Shown in pieces: positions 1 to 52,764 of a stretch of DNA of 64,000 nucleotides. The stretch comes from Acinetobacter phage nACB2: the sequence record OQ032512.1. One strand, 5' to 3'. The notes under the pieces are model-generated. The model did no database searches, was not told the origin of the DNA, and worked only from the letters and a program-made list of their open reading frames with translations. The position numbers and the translations under genes are program-made. How positions within the stretch are numbered: position 1 is the first letter of the stretch; each line of letters begins with the position of its first letter.

Positions 1-2190
1 ATCTCAGATTCATATAACATTGAATGTATCAAAGATGGTGTGAAGTGTTCATTCCAGTTCTTCCGTTCTGGGCGCAGCCTACCACAGTTAATGCTTTTAG
101 ATAAGTCTACGACAGATGAACCAAACGGCGTAGCTTTCCGTATTCACGTACGCGATCTTCAACGCAAGAAATATGAAGATGCTCTGAAGACTCAGATGTT
201 CATGTTCGAGCCTAAACCTAATATTGACGGTGCAGCATGGCCATATGATAGACCTTCGTTGACTCTAGAGCGCGGAAATGTTCGAGCGTACAGAGCTGAA
301 GATCAGCGTGAATTCTTCGGCGCTTTTGCTCTGGAAATGGGTGGCGTGACGTATCCATTCAAACCAGATTCTGTAAATCCTGAGTGCGAACAGTTATTCA
401 AAGCTATTCAACAGACGCTAGGTTATAATGAAATTGTTGTGATTAGTGTTCCTATTGGTAGTGTAGAAGTACCAGGAGACCGCGAGCGCGTAGAATATAG
501 CGACTTCACAATTGAAAATCTAGTGAAGGAGTTGCATAGTGTAGGGGATGCGTTTACTAAAGACAAGACAGAAGAATACTTGAAAAACTTTTCTGAAGTC
601 AAAAACTTTCTTGAGGCAACAAGATTAGCCGCAGACTTTTCCGGAGAGATGAAGTATATGCTTCCGTTTGTGAGAAATACAAACGGCATGGAAAATTACA
701 AAGAATGGACTATGTATGAGAAGCCTATCATCAACGAAAAGGGTGAAGTGGTAAATGTGACAATGCGTTTTGCCCCTTATAATACAGAACGTAGCGACTT
801 TCACTGGACTTTCTCTGCGCCATTTTTTGAAGATACGCATGTAGTGCAAACGACAGACGAGAAGGGGCAGAAAGTAGATAAGGTTGTTAAGAATTACAAT
901 CCAAAATATTCTTTTTCAAAAGCTTCCGTAGCGTATAATAGCACAAAGGTTGTTTTGGATCAATATGAGCATATAAAAATTTGGTCTTCAGGACAAGCAT
1001 CGCGTTTCGACAACATGACTGTAATATTAGTTGATACAAATTCTAAACCAGTTGCTAAGACAATAGAACTCTGGTTAGCAGAACCTACTACAACTGTATC
1101 TAATCGTAATATATACGTTGTTCGTTGCGCTGACAAGAGTTATGATTTTTCTGAGTTTGAATACATTCTTTCAGAATCTTTACCTGTAAACGTGAATATT
1201 GTGCGTTTATCTGAGCTGAAGTACACTAAGGCAGCAACAGATAAAGTAAGCAACGCTGCTGGTTTTAGACGTATGCCAGCTGTTCTTGATTTGTTTGTAC
1301 CAGAAACTAGGAAAACTCGCTTTGATACAAAGCCGTCTCAAATTAAGATGTCCGAACTTCAAGAACACTTCAAGGCTTATGATGAAGACAATTTGGATGA
1401 ATCTCAATTCTTCGCATACGGTTATTTTGACGTTGACACAAACACAATATATTCAGATCCTGAACATAAGCAAAAGGTGGACATGAAAGCCCTTTCTATC
1501 ATGACCACGGCTAGATACTTCGGAAAGTCAATTCTGTTGATGTCTAAAACAGCAGCTAAGAAATACGGAGAAATTATCTCTGAGACAGGTATTCCTAATA
1601 TTTCGGAGTTGTCGGACGCTGATAAGTGGTTCAAAACTTTAAGTTTAGAATGTAAATCCATTTGGATGTTCATATTGCGTTATCAATCGGTAACTATGAA
1701 TAGCACAGCTCGCGAAAATCTAAACTATTTGGATGATTATTTCTACAAAGTAGCTGAAGAAATATTTGATGTCTATAATCCTAAAGAATATCGTTACAAC
1801 TGCGAACTAAGATTCCAAAATTTCGTTAATGCCATTCACGGTATAAGTTATAACAGCACTAACATTCGCAAAAAGTTTTTCAAAGACGATACTGAAGACC
1901 TACAGCATTTCAAAGACGCTATTTCTGTATTGTTCTATGCAAAACATTATCCTAAATCTCAAATTGGACGCAAGATAAACAATATCTTTAGAAACATACA
2001 AGGGGGGTACGTTGAAGAACGTGCAAAATCATTAGTGGAAAAGACTAAGAAAAATAATTCTGTACCAGAATCCTTTACTGAGTTTTTAGTTTATACGGCT
2101 CTGAATACTTTATCAGAATCGGATGCATTGAAAGCTGCAATACGTTTTGAGAAACAAAGAACTATCTTTGATTTTAGTTTCCAAAATTGA
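1..2190 (+). CDS. Large protein of unknown function, 5' end truncated by the window edge. The reading frame is open back to position 1, and the GTG 'start' at 40 is an ORF-caller artefact. Possibly rIIA-like.
   Basis: One open frame of at least 716 codons with no stop upstream to the window edge. Its position next to an HTH-containing 374-aa protein recalls the T4 rIIA-rIIB pair. No motif was verified. Confidence 0.5.
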   Translation: MSDSYNIECIKDGVKCSFQFFRSGRSLPQLMLLDKSTTDEPNGVAFRIHVRDLQRKKYEDALKTQMFMFEPKPNIDGAAWPYDRPSLTLERGNVRAYRAEDQREFFGAFALEMGGVTYPFKPDSVNPECEQLFKAIQQTLGYNEIVVISVPIGSVEVPGDRERVEYSDFTIENLVKELHSVGDAFTKDKTEEYLKNFSEVKNFLEATRLAADFSGEMKYMLPFVRNTNGMENYKEWTMYEKPIINEKGEVVNVTMRFAPYNTERSDFHWTFSAPFFEDTHVVQTTDEKGQKVDKVVKNYNPKYSFSKASVAYNSTKVVLDQYEHIKIWSSGQASRFDNMTVILVDTNSKPVAKTIELWLAEPTTTVSNRNIYVVRCADKSYDFSEFEYILSESLPVNVNIVRLSELKYTKAATDKVSNAAGFRRMPAVLDLFVPETRKTRFDTKPSQIKMSELQEHFKAYDEDNLDESQFFAYGYFDVDTNTIYSDPEHKQKVDMKALSIMTTARYFGKSILLMSKTAAKKYGEIISETGIPNISELSDADKWFKTLSLECKSIWMFILRYQSVTMNSTARENLNYLDDYFYKVAEEIFDVYNPKEYRYNCELRFQNFVNAIHGISYNSTNIRKKFFKDDTEDLQHFKDAISVLFYAKHYPKSQIGRKINNIFRNIQGGYVEERAKSLVEKTKKNNSVPESFTEFLVYTALNTLSESDALKAAIRFEKQRTIFDFSFQN

Positions 2191-2202
2191 TTTTTAACTT
2201 AA

Positions 2203-2234
2203 ATTGGAACTGACTCTATAATAGGTCAGTTCCC
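2203..2234 (+). promoter_or_regulatory. Perfect 9-bp hairpin (ggaactgac / gtcagttcc) with TATAAT in the loop, between the two genes.
   Basis: Read directly. A possible -35 TTAACT lies 17 nt upstream of the TATAAT, so this may be a promoter and/or an RNA structure. Confidence 0.35.
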
Positions 2235-2250
2235 AACTAGGAGAAGCCCA

Positions 2251-3375
2251 ATGGCTGTCAAATACACAGATGCACAAAAGAAAGATTACGCTATCAAAGC
2301 ATGTAAAATCATCAAATCTGGTGGTTCTATTAACTCAGCTGCTAAAGAATTGGGTATTGCGAACCGTACTATCAAAAGCTGGATCGAGCAATACGCCCCT
2401 GCTGAAGCTACTGATAAAGACGGTAAAGAAGTTGAAGTCGAAACGACTCGAAAAGCGAAAGCAAAGCGCCAACCAGCAGCGAGCACCACTCGACGCAAAA
2501 AAGCAGGTGGAAGTAAAACCACTAAACCGAAACAGCAGAAAGCTACTACAGCAGAAGTTGGAACGGAAGCGCAAACTACAGGATCGGTGGAGCTGAAAGT
2601 TATCACTCTTCCAAACAGTACTGTAATCGCAATTGCTTCTCAAAGCCATGAAGTGAAAAAAGATCACCCTCGTTTCAACCAAATCAACATATTCTTGAGC
2701 AAAGTGGTTGATAATGTTATTACAGAAGATCAAGCCAAAGAACTTGAAAACCTAATTGAAGGCGAACAGGTTACTCAGCTGAAGACTTGGTCGCAGGGTA
2801 AACTTTCTATTGACAACGGCGTTGTGCGTTGGGATGGTAAACCTCTTGTTGGCGGTCTGAAAGAAGTTATGTTGCGTCTGGCGGCTTCTGGAGATACGAA
2901 ACGCCTCAAAAACTTCTCTGCTTTCATTGAGAAGGTGCGTCAGTGTGTATCTTATAAAGTCAACCAACGCTTCTTTGACTTTATCTCAAAGAACAGCCTT
3001 CAGATCACTGAAGATGGTGATATTATTGCATTCAAAGTAGTTCGTCATGACTATAAAGATAAACACTCTGGCACATTTGACAATAGCGTAGGCAAAACAG
3101 TCCAGATGCCTCGAAACGAAGTGGATGACCAAGACACAAATACTTGTTCTAATGGTCTACACATTTGCTCTGAATCCTACATTAAGTCATTCAGCAGCTC
3201 TAATGACCGCCTAGTGTTAGTGAAAGTAGATCCACGCGATATCGTGTCTATCCCAACAGACTACAATTCGTCAAAGTGCCGAACATGCCGTTACACTGTA
3301 GTGAAAGACGTTACTGATGAATGGAAAGCTGGAAAGCATATCCAATACACAGACGACTATAAGTTCAAAGCGTAA
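2251..3375 (+). CDS. 374-aa protein with an N-terminal helix-turn-helix and a basic Lys/Thr-rich linker; possibly rIIB-like.
   Basis: ATG at 2251 preceded by AGGAGAAG. N-terminal HTH-like segment 'SINSAAKELGIANRTIKSWIEQY'. The rIIB assignment is inference from architecture and neighbour only. Confidence 0.6.
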   Translation: MAVKYTDAQKKDYAIKACKIIKSGGSINSAAKELGIANRTIKSWIEQYAPAEATDKDGKEVEVETTRKAKAKRQPAASTTRRKKAGGSKTTKPKQQKATTAEVGTEAQTTGSVELKVITLPNSTVIAIASQSHEVKKDHPRFNQINIFLSKVVDNVITEDQAKELENLIEGEQVTQLKTWSQGKLSIDNGVVRWDGKPLVGGLKEVMLRLAASGDTKRLKNFSAFIEKVRQCVSYKVNQRFFDFISKNSLQITEDGDIIAFKVVRHDYKDKHSGTFDNSVGKTVQMPRNEVDDQDTNTCSNGLHICSESYIKSFSSSNDRLVLVKVDPRDIVSIPTDYNSSKCRTCRYTVVKDVTDEWKAGKHIQYTDDYKFKA

Positions 3376-3409
3376 TGGTTTCGGGGGAGAAATCCCCCAC
3401 TTTGGTGAA

Positions 3410-3793
3410 ATGGATATGACAATCTTTTATATTGACTTAAAACAACGAATAGATGGCTGCTACGGCGCTTCTAATCTGAAACACGAAATACAACAGCGCG
3501 TTGAAGCTGGATACATCGTGCATTTAGACCTTAGCAATCTAACTAAAATACCTCAGTTAGACTTTTTTGAAGAAGGTATTTCTGAAATTATTACTGATGG
3601 TATGCCTTTAGAAAAATTGAAAGCGCATCTGAAGTTTAAATGTTCTGAATCTGATCTTTTGAAGATTGTTGAATTATTGAAACAAGCAGAAAAGTCTAGA
3701 TTCAATGCGCTGCGAAACAAAGATGTTTTGGGGCACTTAAAAGACACAATCAAAGGGTTCGGAAACAACCCAGTAGTATCACGGGGGCAGTGA
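3410..3793 (+). CDS. Hypothetical protein (about 127 aa; start moved to the internal ATG at 3410).
   Basis: The ORF-track start at 3317 overlaps the upstream gene by 59 nt. The ATG at 3410 has a GGTGA Shine-Dalgarno and follows a GGGGGA/TCCCCC hairpin at 3383-3400. Confidence 0.5.
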   Translation: MDMTIFYIDLKQRIDGCYGASNLKHEIQQRVEAGYIVHLDLSNLTKIPQLDFFEEGISEIITDGMPLEKLKAHLKFKCSESDLLKIVELLKQAEKSRFNALRNKDVLGHLKDTIKGFGNNPVVSRGQ

Positions 3794-4212
3794 TGAAGTT
3801 TTATGTCGGTAGTGTAAAAATGGAACATGATGGTAAAAACATCTTTCTCACAACCGAGATAAAGCCCTCAGATGTTGAAGGTGTGAGTCCTTTATTAGAT
3901 TGTGTAGCAAATCTAGACATCTGGGAATCTGATGATGTTGTAGAGTTGACATCAGCTATATGGTCTAAAAACGGTCTTTTACCATTTGATGTTATGTTTT
4001 TAACAAATTTCAGCGATGAAATAGTTTCTTATGAAGGTGATGTTGATGTCATGTATATCAATATTCTAGACTTCAGATTGGCGCTAGTGAAGTTTGATGA
4101 CTTCAATAGCTTATTCGTAGAGCGTAAACAGCTCAAACAATTTGTGAATGCCCTAACAACTAACAGACAGGGTCGTTACACTCAACATGGGAGAAAGGCG
4201 CAATGCGCTTAA
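3790..4212 (+). CDS. Hypothetical protein (140 aa).
   Basis: ORF with an ATGA stop/start overlap with the upstream gene. Confidence 0.5.
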   Translation: MMKFYVGSVKMEHDGKNIFLTTEIKPSDVEGVSPLLDCVANLDIWESDDVVELTSAIWSKNGLLPFDVMFLTNFSDEIVSYEGDVDVMYINILDFRLALVKFDDFNSLFVERKQLKQFVNALTTNRQGRYTQHGRKAQCA

Positions 4213-5015
4213 ATTTAAATCAGTATGGTATTTTACCTAAAATTGCTGCTATTGTTATTGCTATTATTGTGGGGTTGATTTTCTTATCATCTCTGTTCTT
4301 CACTGTACCAACAGGTCATAAAGGTATTGTAACTCAATTCAATGAATTGCATACGGTGAAAGACTCAGGCTTGAACTTCAAAATGCCATTTATACAAAAG
4401 GTGATCTTGGTAGACACGCGTACTGCTAAGGCTGAAACAGCTATTCAAGCAAACACGCGTGACATGCAACGCGTGTCGTCAAAAGTTGTAGTGAACTATC
4501 ATATTAATCCGTCTAGTATTGAAAAATTGTTCAGTCAGACAGGTTTGGACATTGAAACAAAGATCATCGATCCGCGTATCCAAGAAGCAACTAAATCCGT
4601 TGTGACAAAATATACAGCCGATCAATTGACAAAACAACGCGATGACGTGAAGAATGCTTTGTCTGTTGACTTAACAACGCGCCTTGCAAAGTACGGTATT
4701 GTAGTTGAAGACGTTCAGGTCACTGAATTCACTTTCTCCAAAGTTTTCTATGACTCAATCGAATCTAAGCAGATTGCTGAACAAAGTGCATTGAAGGCTG
4801 AAAATGACCTCAAGCGTATCGAAGTAGAAGCGAAACAAAAGATTGAAATGGCAAAGGCTGAAGCCGAAGCTATTCGCATTCAATCTGAAGCTGTTCGAGC
4901 TCAGGGTGGTACTGAATATGTACAGTTGAAAGCTATTGAAAAGTGGTCTGGTAAACTTCCTGAAACTGTAGTTGGCGGCAACGGCGCTCTTCCATTCATC
5001 AATGTAGGTAAATGA
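4203..5015 (+). CDS. SPFH/band-7 (prohibitin/HflC-like) membrane protein.
   Basis: N-terminal TM helix (IAAIVIAIIVGLIFLSSLFF), then 'VPTGHKGIVTQFN' (the SPFH signature VPxGxxGVV) and a long C-terminal coiled coil. SD GGGAGAAAGG. Confidence 0.75.
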   Translation: MRLNLNQYGILPKIAAIVIAIIVGLIFLSSLFFTVPTGHKGIVTQFNELHTVKDSGLNFKMPFIQKVILVDTRTAKAETAIQANTRDMQRVSSKVVVNYHINPSSIEKLFSQTGLDIETKIIDPRIQEATKSVVTKYTADQLTKQRDDVKNALSVDLTTRLAKYGIVVEDVQVTEFTFSKVFYDSIESKQIAEQSALKAENDLKRIEVEAKQKIEMAKAEAEAIRIQSEAVRAQGGTEYVQLKAIEKWSGKLPETVVGGNGALPFINVGK

Positions 5016-47280: not shown

Positions 47281-47382
47281 TTTTACACCCTCAATATTAC
47301 AATTTAAAATAGTTGTACTATAAAGGGGCAATAAAAAAGCCACCTTTCGGCAGCTTTCTTTTAAGATTATCTAAAGTTATGG

Positions 47383-48099
47383 TCAGGCTTCTTTAGGTGT
47401 CTCTTGTTCTGTCTTTTCTTCTGATTTCGGAGCTGTTTCAGCGCCTTCCACTTCAGAACTTTCTGTCTTGACTTCAGCTGCCGCTTGTTCTGCCGCTTTC
47501 GCTGCATTTTGAGCATCTTCAAGACGTTTTAAAGAAGCGCGTCCAGAAAGGAATGCTGCTCGAGCAGACAAAGCCATAACCTGTTCAAAATCAGAGATAA
47601 TTACATTGTGACCGTCACCTGTTTGAACTGGAGCGATAACACCTGCAATTGCAATATCAAAGCCTTTAGCAGATAAACGTTTCTGCATATTCAATACCAT
47701 TTCTAGAATACCAACAGCGTCATCAGCTGGGAAGCCAGAAACATATACAGTACGTTTGATTTCAGCCATTTCTTCTTCAGTAATTTTATCACCTTTAGGA
47801 TCAGAGTGATACATAAACTGCAAGGTCGGGTTGCCGAAAGATGTCAAAGTGTACGCGCCTTCTACGTTATCAAGCTGAGTGCGCATTGTTTGACTGTAGT
47901 CTGTACCGAACTGAATGAAGATGGCTTTAATAAGTTCTACAGGATCATTTGGGTCAACATTGTCTTTTAATTCAACTGTTTCTGAGATTGCGACAGGTTG
48001 AGCTTCAGCTGCTTGAGATGTATTGGTTTCATCCACCTTTACTTCAATCGCTTCAGCGCGTTCGATGTCTTTTTGGTTGTCTACGTTTAACTGTGTCAT
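47383..48099 (-). CDS. Hypothetical protein (238 aa).
   Basis: ORF adjacent to nrdB. Confidence 0.5.
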   Translation of the reverse strand: MTQLNVDNQKDIERAEAIEVKVDETNTSQAAEAQPVAISETVELKDNVDPNDPVELIKAIFIQFGTDYSQTMRTQLDNVEGAYTLTSFGNPTLQFMYHSDPKGDKITEEEMAEIKRTVYVSGFPADDAVGILEMVLNMQKRLSAKGFDIAIAGVIAPVQTGDGHNVIISDFEQVMALSARAAFLSGRASLKRLEDAQNAAKAAEQAAAEVKTESSEVEGAETAPKSEEKTEQETPKEA

Positions 48100-48189
48100 G
48101 AGAGGTTACTCCAAAATTTAAAAAACTTTCATTTAAGTGAATACAGGGCTATTATAAACCCTGTATTGCGATTATCTCTAAAATCAATA

Positions 48190-49233
48190 TTATTTGTAAT
48201 TAGCACCTAAAGACAACATAGTCTTCAGGTCATAATCGCCCACAATGGCACCAGATACTTGATACGAACTCACCTTAGTTTCAAAGAATGAACTCACTTT
48301 GTTTTCTGTCAGAATAGGCTCAATCCATTCACAAGGATTTTCAGAAATTTCTGGCCATTCTGGTTTCAGACCCATCTGAATCATACGTCGATTTGACATA
48401 AAACGCATGTATGCCTTATTTTCTTCAATTGTGAATGTATCTAGTTTCAGATGCTTGAACACTAAATCCAAAAACTTATCTTCAACAGTAATGAAACGGC
48501 GGTTCATCTCATAAATGTCTCGTTTCAGTTTGTCATCAACAATTGGATGTTCATACGACAGCTGACGGAACAATTGAACGTTGTAGTCAGTATGCAAGGT
48601 TTCATCGCGCAGAGACCATGCATTGATCTTCGAGAATCCTTTTAGACGTCCACCGCGCTTACCATTGAAAGCAACGCGGTCACGGCGCATGAATTGTAAA
48701 AGACCAACAAACATACCGAAAAGTGCAACGCCTTCATCAATAACAGAATGAGCGTGGTTGATTGCTAATTGCTCAACAGTATCGCATTCCAAGTTTACGA
48801 ACATACCTTCAAGACGGTCTTGCATTTCTTTATATTCTTGGAACATAGAGAAAATGGTATCATCCATACCAAAGATTTCAGCTGCTAACGCGTAGGCTTC
48901 CTGATGGATACCTTCGCGGCACGCAATAGACATTAAGCCGTTACTGACTTCATTGTTCTTGTAATGTTTCAAGAAACAATCGCGGTAGTTTTTAGCTACA
49001 ACGACGTCACCAGTTGTGAAGATGGTGAAAATCATACGGATATATGATTTTTCATCATTTGTCAAGTTGTTTGCCCAGTCTTCGTGATCGTCTTGCATTT
49101 GGGCTTCGCCAGGAATCCAGTGGATCTTTTCATGATCTTGGTACATTTCCTGAGCCCACGGGTATACAAATGGACGGTATACCAGAGAATCTTGGAACAA
49201 TGGGCTTGTTGAATCAGCAATTAAAATAGACAT
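48190..49233 (-). CDS. nrdB: Ribonucleotide reductase small subunit (class Ia NrdB).
   Basis: Diiron/tyrosyl motifs 'REGIHQEAY' (E-x-x-H then Y four residues later) and 'RDETLH'. 347 aa with no interruption. Confidence 0.85.
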   Translation of the reverse strand: MSILIADSTSPLFQDSLVYRPFVYPWAQEMYQDHEKIHWIPGEAQMQDDHEDWANNLTNDEKSYIRMIFTIFTTGDVVVAKNYRDCFLKHYKNNEVSNGLMSIACREGIHQEAYALAAEIFGMDDTIFSMFQEYKEMQDRLEGMFVNLECDTVEQLAINHAHSVIDEGVALFGMFVGLLQFMRRDRVAFNGKRGGRLKGFSKINAWSLRDETLHTDYNVQLFRQLSYEHPIVDDKLKRDIYEMNRRFITVEDKFLDLVFKHLKLDTFTIEENKAYMRFMSNRRMIQMGLKPEWPEISENPCEWIEPILTENKVSSFFETKVSSYQVSGAIVGDYDLKTMLSLGANYK

Positions 49234-49239
49234 GTAATA

Positions 49240-51873
49240 TTATCCTTGGCAGTTTTCGCAGTCTTCATCTTTCTCTTCAGAGAAAAGATTATCAGCTTGA
49301 GCGAGATGTTCTTTGTAAAGGGCTTGTACTTCTTTATGACCGCCAATCCAAGCACCATCTAAGAACACTTGAGGTACAGAACGGCAAGAAGGGTCGCCTG
49401 TTACTTCAGCGGCAGTTTTTTCAATCTGTTGTAGATCAACAAATTTGAATTCTACGCCCATATCACTTAACCAACGCTTAACTGTAGTACAATTAGGGCA
49501 GACTTTTGTACCGTAAACAATATTCTCACCAGACTTCTGTTCTTTCTTAACAGAATCTTTCAGAGCTTTACGCTCTAGAGCTTGAGACAATGTTTCAATC
49601 TCAACTTCAGGCTTCGTACGGTAGTAATACAGAGATTTTAAACCCCATTTCCAAGCGTAGAAGTGACATGCGACTACATAGTTGATATCACTTCCTGGTT
49701 TGAAGAACAAGTTTAAACTTTGAGCCTGACAGATTTCAGGTTGACGGTCGGCGGCAAGACGAACAATGCTCAATTGAGGAATCTCAAAAGCTGTAGCAAA
49801 TACGCGCTTTTTATGATCGCTCATGAATTCTAGATGAGATACTGAACCTTCATTATGAGCAATGCTTGTCCATACTTCTTCAGTATCTTGACCTAGTTCT
49901 TGAAGATACTTCTTCAAATAAGGGTTGCGGCGTTCAAAGATACCAACACGCGTTTCTTTAGTGTAGATGTTAGCGTATTCAGGTTCACAGCTGGCTGATG
50001 TAGTTAGCATATCAGCATTGTTAGAGTTAGGCGCGATAGCAAGTAAATGCATGTTACGACGACCAACGTGCGGATGATCTTTAGAACTAGCCGCATCTGG
50101 ACATTCACCGCGCTCTTCACCTAATTTAAGTGTTTCGGCTACAGCTTCTGTTTTGATGCGTTTGAATAATGCTTTGTTGAAAACACGCGCTTCTTCAGAA
50201 TCAAATGGCATATCTTGCTTCTGGAAAGCGTAATGAAGACCCATAACGCCTAGACCAATAGAACGTTCTTGAGTTGCTGAATTGATCACTTTGTACAAAG
50301 CCATTTTAATCAATTCACGGTGACGTGGATTATCATAGCGGTTCGCAATCCAGTCTGCAGTGCGAATGAAATGTTCAATGGCATTGTCCAATGCACGCAC
50401 TAAGTCGCCTACTAAGGTAGGTGCCCATTGATCATGATATTCAGCATTTAATGAAGACAAGCAGCACACTGGAGTACGGTCATCATTCGCTGGAAGAGTA
50501 ATTTCAGTACAGTTAGAAACAAGCGCAACTCGATGATCGAAATCATTTTTACCGCCCACGCTTACATAGAAGTTATGGTTGTCTTCTACAGTTAAACAGT
50601 AAACATCTTGTGTTCCAACATTTTGCTCAACGGAAGCAACTGTAAGATCAGAATTGTCAAAATTTACAGAGCCGTGACGGAACAGACGAGAATCAATTTG
50701 CTTACCAACAGAATCTTTTGCTTTTACGCGTTTTCCGATGGTTGTGAATAGTTCATGATCTTTCGTACAAGTGATAGTTTCACCTGAACGGAAAGTCAGG
50801 GTAACCATTTCTTTACGTCCAGTCAATTTAGCAGTAGCCGTTTTGACCTCAGGGTAGACTTTACCGTTTGAAACTCGTCCTGTCCATACTTTGAATGGAA
50901 TAGAACCAGACGATTCACGCGCCAACTGTTTAATAGAGATAGGCTTACGACCGTCTGCTACAATTACTTTTGTATCACCTGCAAGACACAAGTTTGAAGC
51001 GTATGAATACAATCCGAGACGTTTCTGAGCTTCAGGCAGTGCGCGGTTTGCATTACCACGGAAATACATGAACGGTTCGCCTGTGCGACCGCGTTCGACA
51101 ATCATAGAACGGAAGTAATCTGTAGGATTTACAGTGTCCACAACGCGTTTTGAATGCGGATCAATCAGGTGATATTCTTCAGCGCCGTCTTCAATGCGTT
51201 CCATGAGATCATCTTCAATAGAGAATCCAATATGGATGTTTTCAGCTTTGCGGTTCGCGTCACCTGTAGGAGTACGAATCTTCAAAAATTCTTTAGCGGA
51301 AGCGTGATTAGCAGATAACCAACAAGCTTCAGCGCCACGGCGTACTTTGCCTTGTTTCCACGCTAGAATTGCTGCGTCATCTTCAATAATGAACGGAATT
51401 GGGCCAGGAGATTTTTCAGATGTATAGCGGATATCAAAGTATTTGCCGATACCGCCGCCAATTACAGACAGTAAAGACGATTCTAATTTACCCATCAATA
51501 AAGAAGGGATATTATCAGACACCATAGGAAGGAAACAAGAAATATTCTGAGAACCATTATGGTTGAAATCTTCTTCATGTTCCCAAATAGGTAATGATTG
51601 GTTAATCATACCAGCTTTCCACACTTCAGGCTTCAGTTCCGGAGCATTAGACAGCATAGGCGAAGACCACATGAAATGCAGCATAGAGTTGGCATCATAA
51701 AGGCGCTGAGCGTGATGAACGTCATCAGACCAAGCTACGCATGCACGAGCTAGTGTTTCTTGGATTGTTTCCCCACTACGTGTATAAAAGTTTTTGATAA
51801 GGTCTTTCGCAGGTTCTGTAAGCAAATTATCTCGAGAATCATCAATATTGATTCCCATGTAAACACGTGTCAT
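49240..51873 (-). CDS. nrdA: Ribonucleotide reductase large subunit (NrdA) with no ATP cone. It contains a 159-aa mini-intein at the catalytic Cys and a C-terminal glutaredoxin-like domain.
   Basis: Extein '...YSYASNL|CTEITLPANDDRTPVCCLSSLNAEYH' matches E. coli NrdA 'SNLCLEIALP...IALCTLSAFNL'. C-terminal Grx fold 'CPNC...SVPQVFLDG' followed by a 'CENC' tail. Start moved to the ATG at 51873 (SD GGTGGA); the ORF-track GTG at 51882 is an artefact. Confidence 0.85.
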   Translation of the reverse strand: MTRVYMGINIDDSRDNLLTEPAKDLIKNFYTRSGETIQETLARACVAWSDDVHHAQRLYDANSMLHFMWSSPMLSNAPELKPEVWKAGMINQSLPIWEHEEDFNHNGSQNISCFLPMVSDNIPSLLMGKLESSLLSVIGGGIGKYFDIRYTSEKSPGPIPFIIEDDAAILAWKQGKVRRGAEACWLSANHASAKEFLKIRTPTGDANRKAENIHIGFSIEDDLMERIEDGAEEYHLIDPHSKRVVDTVNPTDYFRSMIVERGRTGEPFMYFRGNANRALPEAQKRLGLYSYASNLCLAGDTKVIVADGRKPISIKQLARESSGSIPFKVWTGRVSNGKVYPEVKTATAKLTGRKEMVTLTFRSGETITCTKDHELFTTIGKRVKAKDSVGKQIDSRLFRHGSVNFDNSDLTVASVEQNVGTQDVYCLTVEDNHNFYVSVGGKNDFDHRVALVSNCTEITLPANDDRTPVCCLSSLNAEYHDQWAPTLVGDLVRALDNAIEHFIRTADWIANRYDNPRHRELIKMALYKVINSATQERSIGLGVMGLHYAFQKQDMPFDSEEARVFNKALFKRIKTEAVAETLKLGEERGECPDAASSKDHPHVGRRNMHLLAIAPNSNNADMLTTSASCEPEYANIYTKETRVGIFERRNPYLKKYLQELGQDTEEVWTSIAHNEGSVSHLEFMSDHKKRVFATAFEIPQLSIVRLAADRQPEICQAQSLNLFFKPGSDINYVVACHFYAWKWGLKSLYYYRTKPEVEIETLSQALERKALKDSVKKEQKSGENIVYGTKVCPNCTTVKRWLSDMGVEFKFVDLQQIEKTAAEVTGDPSCRSVPQVFLDGAWIGGHKEVQALYKEHLAQADNLFSEEKDEDCENCQG
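50512..50988 (-). mobile_element. Mini-intein (159 aa, no obvious homing-endonuclease domain) inserted immediately before the thiyl-radical Cys of NrdA.
   Basis: Block A 'CLAGDTKVIVADGR', block B 'GETITCTKDHELFT', block F 'DVYCLTVEDNHNFYV', C-terminal 'VALVSN' followed by +1 Cys. The flanking exteins rejoin to the canonical 'SNLCTEI'. Confidence 0.75.
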
Positions 51874-51990
51874 ATATTCCACCGTAAATTTATAAAACTG
51901 TCTAATAGCGTTCTATCCAGACACCCAAAGCCTATCATAACCCTATTTATTAGAAAGCTGACTTTATCAAATATTTTTGGAGAATTTTAA

Positions 51991-52764
51991 ATGCTTCCTT
52001 CTATCCCGTACCAAGTCCATAACGTTAAACTTGAAGAGTTTGAATTCGACTTCAGACCATTCAACGTGGGTATGGAAAATAACCTGCTACTGATCAAGGA
52101 CTCCAAAAAACCTTCTGAAATTTTCTCAGCCATTCTAAACCTTGAGGATGAATGTCTAATTGGTAAATGGAAGGGGCGAGCTAAATCATTACCGTCATAT
52201 ATAGCAGAATTACTTTTCATAGAATTAAGAAAAGTGAGCAACGGCACCGAGATTCCTATCACATTGCGCTGCAATAAGGAATTGGAAATTAAGAATGAAA
52301 ATGACGAATTGATTCTAAAATCAGACGGTAGTCCTAAGACAAAACCTTGTGGTAACGAGATGAACGTTATTCTTGATCTAGATAAAGTTGAACTCATTAA
52401 AACGGAAGGGTATAAAGACACCTTTGTGATTGAAGCTAATCCTCCGATTTTCGTAAAATTACGCCAGATGCAAGCTGGAGAATACAGCCGAGATTTTGCC
52501 AATATTGACACAGCCACAGGTATGTACAAGCACCTAGATTCTATCACTCAAGGTGACCAGATTTTTGGTCTAGATGATTTCACTGAGGAAGAGTTCAAAA
52601 AATGGTGTAAAGATGTTCCGATGTCTACAAAGGCTGAAATGTCTAAATTCTTCTTTGGGGCGCAACCTTACATCAGCCTGAAAACTAAGTTCAAATGCGA
52701 AAATCCAGAATGTAATCACGAACAAGATGTGGAGTTTACGTCTATTCTAGATTTTTTTATTTGA
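51991..52764 (+). CDS. Hypothetical protein (257 aa) with a C-terminal Cys pair.
   Basis: Plus-strand ORF with a C-terminal 'CENPEC'. The minus-strand ORF at 51987-52547 inside it is rejected. Confidence 0.5.
   Translation: MLPSIPYQVHNVKLEEFEFDFRPFNVGMENNLLLIKDSKKPSEIFSAILNLEDECLIGKWKGRAKSLPSYIAELLFIELRKVSNGTEIPITLRCNKELEIKNENDELILKSDGSPKTKPCGNEMNVILDLDKVELIKTEGYKDTFVIEANPPIFVKLRQMQAGEYSRDFANIDTATGMYKHLDSITQGDQIFGLDDFTEEEFKKWCKDVPMSTKAEMSKFFFGAQPYISLKTKFKCENPECNHEQDVEFTSILDFFI

Follow-up and report, generated by a model that had tools for sequence, protein, structure and literature searches.

What interrupts the ribonucleotide reductase (RNR) gene nrdA of Acinetobacter phage nACB2 directly before its radical cysteine, and what has been joined to the C-terminus of the encoded protein? 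The gene lies on the minus strand at 49240–51873 of the window, that is, of the 64-kb stretch (64,000 nucleotides of record OQ032512.1) analysed here out of a genome of 136,560 bp. It encodes a precursor of 877 amino acids, followed by a stop codon, and corresponds to nACB2 gp159. The paper describing the phage names gp159 'ribonucleotide-diphosphate reductase subunit alpha' and mentions neither an intein nor a glutaredoxin (PMC10057805). A sequence-only reading of the window had proposed both; its gene coordinates hold, while the minus strand was left unstated. We regard it as highly probable that nrdA of nACB2 encodes a short class I RNR with a class 1 mini-intein placed immediately before the thiyl-radical cysteine and with a tethered glutaredoxin (Grx) that re-reduces a CENC tail.

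The reductase part is matched by Pfam Ribonuc_red_lgC at 3.9e-80, with a weak match to the all-alpha N-domain. Alignment to E. coli K-12 NrdA (window residues are numbered in the 877-aa protein) places C439 on Cys455, the first residue after the insert (50509–50511, minus strand), in a column that is invariant among homologues. E441 falls on E457, C225 on C113 (51535–51537), C462 on C470, Y730/Y731 on Y749/Y750, and C754/C759 on C872/C875; the equivalent of N437 was assigned by the SNL motif because the aligner misplaced it. The roles of these residues are established for E. coli R1. The N-extein (50989–51873, minus strand; aa 1–295) covers the all-alpha domain and the barrel's first half, includes C113, and ends in ...YASNL. 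The barrel part of the C-extein (49609–50511, minus strand) runs from CTEITLP to LYYYRTKP and contains the equivalents of E441, C462 and Y730/Y731. The equivalents of C225, N437/C439/E441, C462, Y730/Y731 and the C-terminal cysteine pair are all found, together with an adjacent nrdB. No Pfam match to the ATP cone (PF03477) was obtained in the window NrdA, as the sequence-only reading had it, or in NrdB; the same kind of search detects the cone of Dickeya phage LIMEstone1 NrdA at 1.4e-13. By these residues and profile matches, NrdA is the catalytic subunit of a class I RNR of the short type that lacks this cone.

The insert occupies 50512–50988 (minus strand; 159 aa, aa 296–454), from CLAGDTKV to ALVSN, and is followed by Cys; these are exactly the limits proposed earlier. 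It is flanked by ...YASNL on one side and CTEITLP... on the other, and the predicted spliced junction reads ...YASNL-CTEITLPANDDR. Its intein nature, also part of the first proposal, is borne out by several lines of comparison. Pfam Intein_splicing (PF14890) matches at 1.1e-9 with 38.7 bits against a cut-off of 35.8, and NCBIfam intein_Nterm (TIGR01445) reaches 44.2 bits against a cut-off of 24.5. When a profile of seven such mini-inteins was compared with the PDB, all 28 of the 28 matched chains turned out to be inteins, among them DnaE, DnaB, cdc21, DnaX, PolC, NrdJ-1, VMA and Pol-II. In the orthologues of Delftia phage PhiW-14, phage C48C1 and Methylophilales phage Melnitz and in the metagenomic protein P0017, precisely this 159-residue segment is missing and SN[IL]-C[TN]EI runs on uninterrupted. 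Inteins sit at the identical site in Caulobacter phage CcrKarma and Synechococcus phage S-CBWM1 (both annotated in their records), in Rheinheimera phage Barba8S, in LIMEstone1 and in NrdE of Sphingomonas phage PAU. Among contiguous RNR inteins, the thiyl-cysteine point is the site used most often (Dassa 2009). Since the profile matches, the absence from orthologues, the inteins at the same site and the survey of Dassa agree, the aligned evidence identifies the insert as a real intein at a textbook RNR location, and the alignment of the +1 Cys on E. coli C439 confirms its placement at the catalytic cysteine. The first proposal had also allowed that the segment might be a normal domain shared by the NrdA of related phages; the only collinear relative is Acinetobacter phage SH-Ab 15599, which itself carries the intein.

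The groups needed for splicing are present. Cys1 of CLAGDTKV directly follows ASNL and supplies the N-terminal nucleophile; block B contains TKDH at 50755–50766 (aa 370–373), within a C-T-x-x-H core whose C, T and H are invariant in the family alignment; the intein ends in ...LVSN followed by CTEI, which provides both the C-terminal Asn and a Cys at +1. Two substitutions weigh against a functional intein of this type, both at positions that ordinarily help catalysis. Block F, VYCLTVEDNHNF, has Cys at F:4 (50596–50598) in place of the usual Asp; in the alignment this Cys of VYCLTVE stands opposite the Asp of the DnaE (VYDIGVE) and DnaB (VFDLTVP) inteins. The penultimate residue (G:6) is Ser (50515–50517) and not His. 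The AlphaFold2 (AF2) model of the intein, built from a 5-sequence alignment, has a mean predicted local distance difference test (pLDDT) score of 42.9, too low for the model to bear on the Hint fold. A penultimate His is frequent but not obligatory among inteins known to splice. Asp at F:4 is usual in inteins, though not universal (Tori 2010).

The F:4 Cys made a class 3 intein worth considering. The class 3 signature is a WCT triplet (Trp at B:12, Cys at F:4, Thr at G:5), and such inteins usually lack the N-terminal nucleophile. The assignment was rejected, since Leu occupies B:12 and Val occupies G:5 and the N-terminal Cys1 is there. The motif pattern points to a standard class 1 mini-intein that is likely to splice. 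No match to an HNH or LAGLIDADG endonuclease was found within the 159 residues, nor any plus-strand open reading frame of at least 50 aa inside the intein, and an antisense or nested endonuclease gene was accordingly rejected. A phmmer search of all open reading frames of at least 50 aa in the 64-kb window revealed no other intein and no Grx paralogue. In a word-indexed protein search the intein alone gave no match, and the C-terminal 164 aa gave only fragments.

The second addition lies at the other end of the protein. A 26-aa linker (49531–49608, minus strand) leads from the barrel to the Grx; it is predicted to be disordered, with pLDDT below 50 at residues 1–19 of the modelled segment. The glutaredoxin domain follows (49279–49530, minus strand), with CPNC at 49489–49500, the cis-Pro motif SVPQ within SVPQVFLDG, IGG as the GG motif and, at its C-terminal end, a long helix. 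The chain ends in a flexible tail, EEKDEDCENCQG (49243–49278, minus strand), whose CENC at 49249–49260 corresponds to E. coli C754/C759 and whose cysteine columns are invariant in all aligned homologues. The thioredoxin-fold segment claimed by the sequence-only reading is well supported. Pfam Glutaredoxin (PF00462) covers residues 785–868 (880-aa numbering) at 3e-10, with 40.6 bits against a cut-off of 22.9. When the last 116 residues were modelled with AF2, the core had pLDDT of 85–92, around 90, and the order beta-alpha-beta-alpha-beta-beta-alpha, with the linker and the last 12 residues disordered. All of the 50 top matches listed by Foldseek against the PDB (E at most 6e-4, probability 1.00) are glutaredoxins or Grx domains, including Grx2, Grx3, thioredoxin-glutathione reductase (TGR) and the H. 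influenzae Prx-Grx hybrid. The best NCBIfam match of the domain is Grx3 at 49 bits, below the equivalog cut-off of 90, with GrxA and eukaryotic Grx also among the best. Taken together, the profiles and the model identify the C-terminal domain as a dithiol glutaredoxin of the GrxC-like kind. Between nACB2 and SH-Ab 15599 its omega of 0.07 makes it the most constrained part of NrdA.

From the domain order, the residue identities, the insertion point, the glutaredoxin fold and motifs and the selective constraint, all of them observed, we infer both a maturation pathway and an electron route. Splicing would begin with an N-S acyl shift at Cys1. The +1 Cys, the future radical cysteine, would then take over the N-extein, Asn159 of the intein would cyclise, and an S-N shift would give ...SNL-CTEI... 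in the mature chain. The precursor of 98.9 kDa (computed mass) would thereby yield an enzyme of 81.5 kDa and a free intein of 17.5 kDa. Because the future radical Cys serves as the +1 nucleophile, NrdA should be inactive before splicing. In the mature enzyme the CENC pair would reduce the active-site disulfide C113–C470 (E. coli C225–C462) after each turnover, and the tethered CPNC Grx would re-reduce the tail at high local concentration, being itself recharged by host glutathione. With the domain tethered, the phage RNR would need no separate redoxin. We consider the fused Grx the likely electron donor of NrdA. A precedent is offered by Facklamia ignava Grx::ATP-cone::NrdB, in which a GrxC-like domain is likewise carried by a class I RNR subunit, there at the N-terminus of NrdB and here at the C-terminus of NrdA; the F. 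ignava NrdB-fused Grx was shown experimentally to reduce the holoenzyme via the tail cysteines of NrdA (Rozman Grinberg 2018).

In favour of this electron route, no other Grx-like open reading frame was found in the 64-kb window, the rest of the genome not having been searched for redoxins. Several points weigh against it. The chain continues for only 12 residues beyond the Grx helix, and for CENC to reach the active site the entire Grx has to move along on the 26-aa linker. The inner active-site residues vary among fused Grx domains, and the acidic pair usual after GG reads HKE in the window. The last two features lend themselves to another reading, namely that the fused redoxin is NrdH- or thioredoxin-like and recharged by thioredoxin reductase, or that it has some other role, such as protecting or deglutathionylating the enzyme. 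Besides the variable inner residues, two relatives have the NrdH-like active sites CTQC and CMNC, the GG-acidic motif is not retained, and the domain fails to reach any of the curated NCBIfam cut-offs for glutaredoxins. The best profiles are nevertheless Grx3, GrxA and eukaryotic Grx, whereas the NrdH-redoxin model TIGR02194 gives 23 bits against a cut-off of 85.75 and the C(V/M)QC and WSGFRP motifs are absent, so that NrdH-redoxin was rejected as an identity for the domain. As for a role away from the tail, the domain's location immediately ahead of the invariant tail cysteines, together with the example of F. ignava, indicates tail reduction. We judge this whole group of alternatives unlikely.

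The substitutions at F:4 and G:6 raise a different doubt: the intein may have decayed and no longer splice, in which case NrdA would be inactive and the phage would rely on the host RNR. Both changes, F:4 Asp to Cys and penultimate His to Ser, occur in nACB2 as well as in SH-Ab 15599, and in an element without a homing endonuclease the need to splice would be the sole force maintaining it. But the four essential groups (Cys1, TxxH, terminal Asn and +1 Cys) are retained, the reading frame is unbroken in five sampled lineages, and the metagenomic contigs L011–L013 have an intact nrdB of identical sequence. Comparison of nACB2 with SH-Ab 15599 gives an omega of 0.18 for the intein and 0.07–0.10 for the exteins, at a synonymous divergence (dS) above 1, which indicates purifying selection. 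Furthermore, at least some inteins without a penultimate His have been documented to splice (Chen, Benner and Perler 2000). Decay of the intein therefore seems very improbable. The same two residues could instead set apart a sub-lineage of RNR-site inteins with a mechanism of its own, in which the F:4 Cys is catalytic or acts as a disulfide switch. Were this Cys paired with Cys1 or the +1 Cys in a disulfide, maturation would be restricted to reducing conditions, and the gate might be released by the protein's own Grx. F:4 adjoins both nucleophiles in known inteins. Among ten RNR-site inteins of the family, F:4 is Cys in six, of which five lack the penultimate His (with S, S, N, K and A instead), while all four inteins with Asp at F:4 keep it. 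The inteins of the window and SH-Ab 15599 have Ser at the penultimate position; the first intein of P0015 and those of S-CBWM1, LIMEstone1 and PAU have His there. Redox-sensitive inteins have, in at least some instances, been described (Kelley 2018). This co-occurrence is a pattern and not a statistic, as the ten inteins are related rather than phylogenetically independent and shared ancestry may explain it. A functional coupling of intein and Grx is argued against by their separate occurrence, since PhiW-14 has only the Grx and the NrdA proteins of CcrKarma, Barba8S and LIMEstone1 only the intein. Both the distinct sub-lineage and the redox gate are in our opinion long shots. A conventionally splicing class 1 mini-intein beside a tail-reducing Grx remains the preferred reading.

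Relative to the HNH inteins of about 340 aa in S-CBWM1 and LIMEstone1, the window intein lacks the whole endonuclease region and keeps a short stub, and because that region is gone it appears to be a deletion derivative that has lost homing. The alignments suggest descent from HNH-endonuclease inteins targeting the same site, followed by vertical inheritance. In keeping with a loss of homing, the intein is common to nACB2 and SH-Ab 15599 across a divergence of dS above 1 and evolves under purifying selection; it is also kept in the metagenomic strains L011–L013, which are 95–98% identical to the window. Its GC content (40.7%) is near that of the exteins (41.6–42.8%), which likewise fits an element that no longer homes. 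Given this GC content and the shared presence in SH-Ab 15599, a recent acquisition is unsupported.

The nearest relative is NrdA of SH-Ab 15599 (AXF41540.1, MH517022), with 80% protein and 75.7% nucleotide identity, collinear along its length and embedded in the same gp26-nrdA-nrdB order. The mini-intein (65% identical) recurs in it together with the CPNC Grx and the tail. The phage is a different species, and the protein is annotated as RNR alpha only, with the intein and Grx unmarked. It was the only close genome in the phage collection. PhiW-14 gp27 (YP_003358882.1) is 50% identical, also lacks an ATP cone and has the same layout of barrel, Grx and CxxC tail with the same KTAAEVTG motif; unlike the window protein it has no intein (TNICTEIT is unbroken), and its Grx motif is CPHC. 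S-CBWM1 gp151 combines an intein at the identical SNL|C site with a C-terminal Grx before a CxxC tail, but its intein has 342 aa with an HNH endonuclease (HNH_3), an F:4 Asp and a penultimate His. Its RNR is more distant, and its record marks the intein and leaves the Grx unmarked. Inteins of the thiyl-cysteine site more generally (phiCbK-like NrdA, the split NrdA-1 to -7 of Dassa 2009, LIMEstone1 and PAU NrdE) have the identical insertion point and share block sequences such as CFTGDT, CTPDH and HNFY. Most of them are either split or equipped with an endonuclease, HNH or other, in contrast to the contiguous mini-intein with F:4 Cys and G:6 Ser seen here.

How common the layout is was assessed by tblastn against 50,697 phage records and by an exhaustive search of 1.84 billion cluster representatives. 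An NrdA homologue is present in 1189 of the 50,697 phage records. Among the 60 matching records listed out of 80, the Grx query fell inside an NrdA gene only in SH-Ab 15599, PhiW-14, C48C1 and S-CBWM1. The cluster representatives contain about nine full-length proteins with the barrel-Grx-CxxC layout, plus a few fragments, and the Grx fusion is combined with an intein also in S-CBWM1 and in P0015, P0016, P0018, P0150 and P0126. Rozman Grinberg et al. had already recorded such fusions: Table S1 of their 2018 paper, from a RefSeq search, lists 'Glutaredoxin:NrdA' in phiW-14 (NrdAk) and cyanophage S-TIM5 (NrdAi), as well as Grx::NrdB in Francisella and phiCbK-like phages (NrdBk). In general, the barrel-Grx-CxxC arrangement is rare but already catalogued, and no biochemical study of it was found.

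Each element and their combination thus have precedents in deposited genomes and in the literature, so the case is one of missed annotation and not of a new kind of system. The consequence is an annotation correction for nACB2 gp159 and for SH-Ab 15599 AXF41540.1: the listed 98-kDa gp159 product would be a precursor, and the working enzyme should be about 81.5 kDa in mass and carry its own reductant. RNR biochemistry gains an example of the barrel-Grx-CxxC layout from a cultured phage, convenient for studying tail shuttling because the redoxin is in the same chain as its substrate cysteines. Current understanding is otherwise unchanged, and the pairing of F:4 Cys with G:6 Ser and the natural multi-intein variants described below are the sole leads that could go further.

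Within the fused Grx domains, the active sites of the various NrdA fusions read CPNC, CPHC, CPWC, CPYC, CTQC, CMNC, CVNC, CSEC or CSFC. Upstream of (S/T)VPQ, at about 49390–49420 in the window, the motif KTAAEVTG is conserved in the closer PhiW-14-like fusions, with the variants KTAAQVTG in P0018 and KTAAEITG in P0019; it is absent from the two free glutaredoxins compared. The motif may be a docking surface.

The open reading frame that contains nrdA extends over 49240–51882 on the minus strand and offers three candidate starts, GTG at 51882, ATG at 51873 and ATG at 51858. The start at 51873 is the best supported, as judged by GGTGGA 6 nt upstream and by alignment with the MSRVY/MTQVY starts (MSRVYLG, MTQVYLG) of relatives. 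The published nACB2 gene table gives gp159 872 aa and 98.25 kDa, implying ATG 51858 (PMC10057805). A scan of 47300–52300 for promoters and terminators returned no signal exceeding the shuffled background.

The small-subunit gene nrdB (48190–49233, minus strand) lies 6 nt downstream of nrdA and encodes 347 aa matching PF00268 at 5.9e-51; its product is identical in sequence to WAW11722.1, the nACB2 NrdB. The best NCBIfam model for it is the Francisella-type Grx::NrdB (PRK12759), with the match confined to the NrdB part, and by this comparison the window nrdB is without a Grx domain. The Grx::NrdB proteins of Francisella and phiCbK-like phages belong to subclass NrdBk, the partner of NrdAk, and carry the Grx at the N-terminus of the small subunit. 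Since the window NrdB matches the Francisella model only over NrdB, the redoxin seems to have been joined to different subunits within this RNR lineage. PhiW-14 NrdA, 50% identical to that of the window, is listed as NrdAk; this and the Francisella-type best model of NrdB suggest that the window RNR probably belongs to RNRdb subclass NrdAk (with NrdBk). Among solved alpha subunits, 6dqx and 6dqw come closest.

The closest homologue that has neither intein nor Grx is NrdA of Melnitz (L005, 2444–4267). It is annotated as 'vitamin B12-dependent', yet it aligns throughout with class I NrdA and has a CxxC tail of the class I type. The label is probably an annotation error of a type that Harrison et al. 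(2019) discuss.

The nearest characterised relatives contain hypermodified bases, alpha-putrescinylthymine in PhiW-14 and alpha-1,3-diaminopropanylthymine in SH-Ab 15599 (NAR 2026, PMC13458397). By analogy, nACB2 may likewise have a hypermodified thymine, a possibility to bear in mind when interpreting its nucleotide-metabolism genes.

Two metagenomic relatives carry further inteins in nrdA. In contig L011 (Logan SRR20950854_67902, 540–4494), from a strain 98% identical to the window, the gene is fractured at NIS|CFLPMVSD. The break falls at the C225-equivalent Cys (window site about 51535–51537), where the window has no such element. The first reading frame ends in the N-part of a split intein (CFESNTPV...), and the third opens with a 35-aa C-part (...GVIAHN) followed by CFLPMVSD. 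Between the two halves a homing endonuclease gene of 342 aa (phrog_655, 3.6e-19) lies on the opposite strand. The mini-intein and Grx are unchanged. This arrangement is of the 'fractured gene' type of Dassa 2009. In the second relative, P0015 (L010, 6001–9681; ENA ERZ27239141 k141_820414), a syntenic contig encodes an NrdA of 1226 aa with two back-to-back inteins, a mini-intein and then a 349-aa HNH intein, with zero extein residues between them. The junctions read ...ASNL|CLAGETKV...LLVHN|CFAGETIV...(HNH)...ILTNN|CTEVTLP, so that Cys1 of the second intein doubles as the +1 residue of the first. No published description of tandem or nested inteins came up in a full-text literature search. On the strength of these two cases, nrdA of this group is a hot spot for mobile elements. 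nACB2, SH-Ab 15599 and the metagenomic sequences together form a series of natural nrdA variants with one mini-intein, with a mini- and a split intein, or with two inteins back to back.

Two smaller insertions in NrdA were also seen. One, ...IWEHEEDFNHNGSQN, lies at about 51544–51588 (aa 96–110, 877-aa numbering), directly before the active-site Cys of ISCFL; it is present in SH-Ab 15599 and P0015, absent from PhiW-14, C48C1 and Melnitz, and lineage-specific. The other, TADWIANRYDNPRHRELIKMALYKV, is common to the window and PhiW-14.

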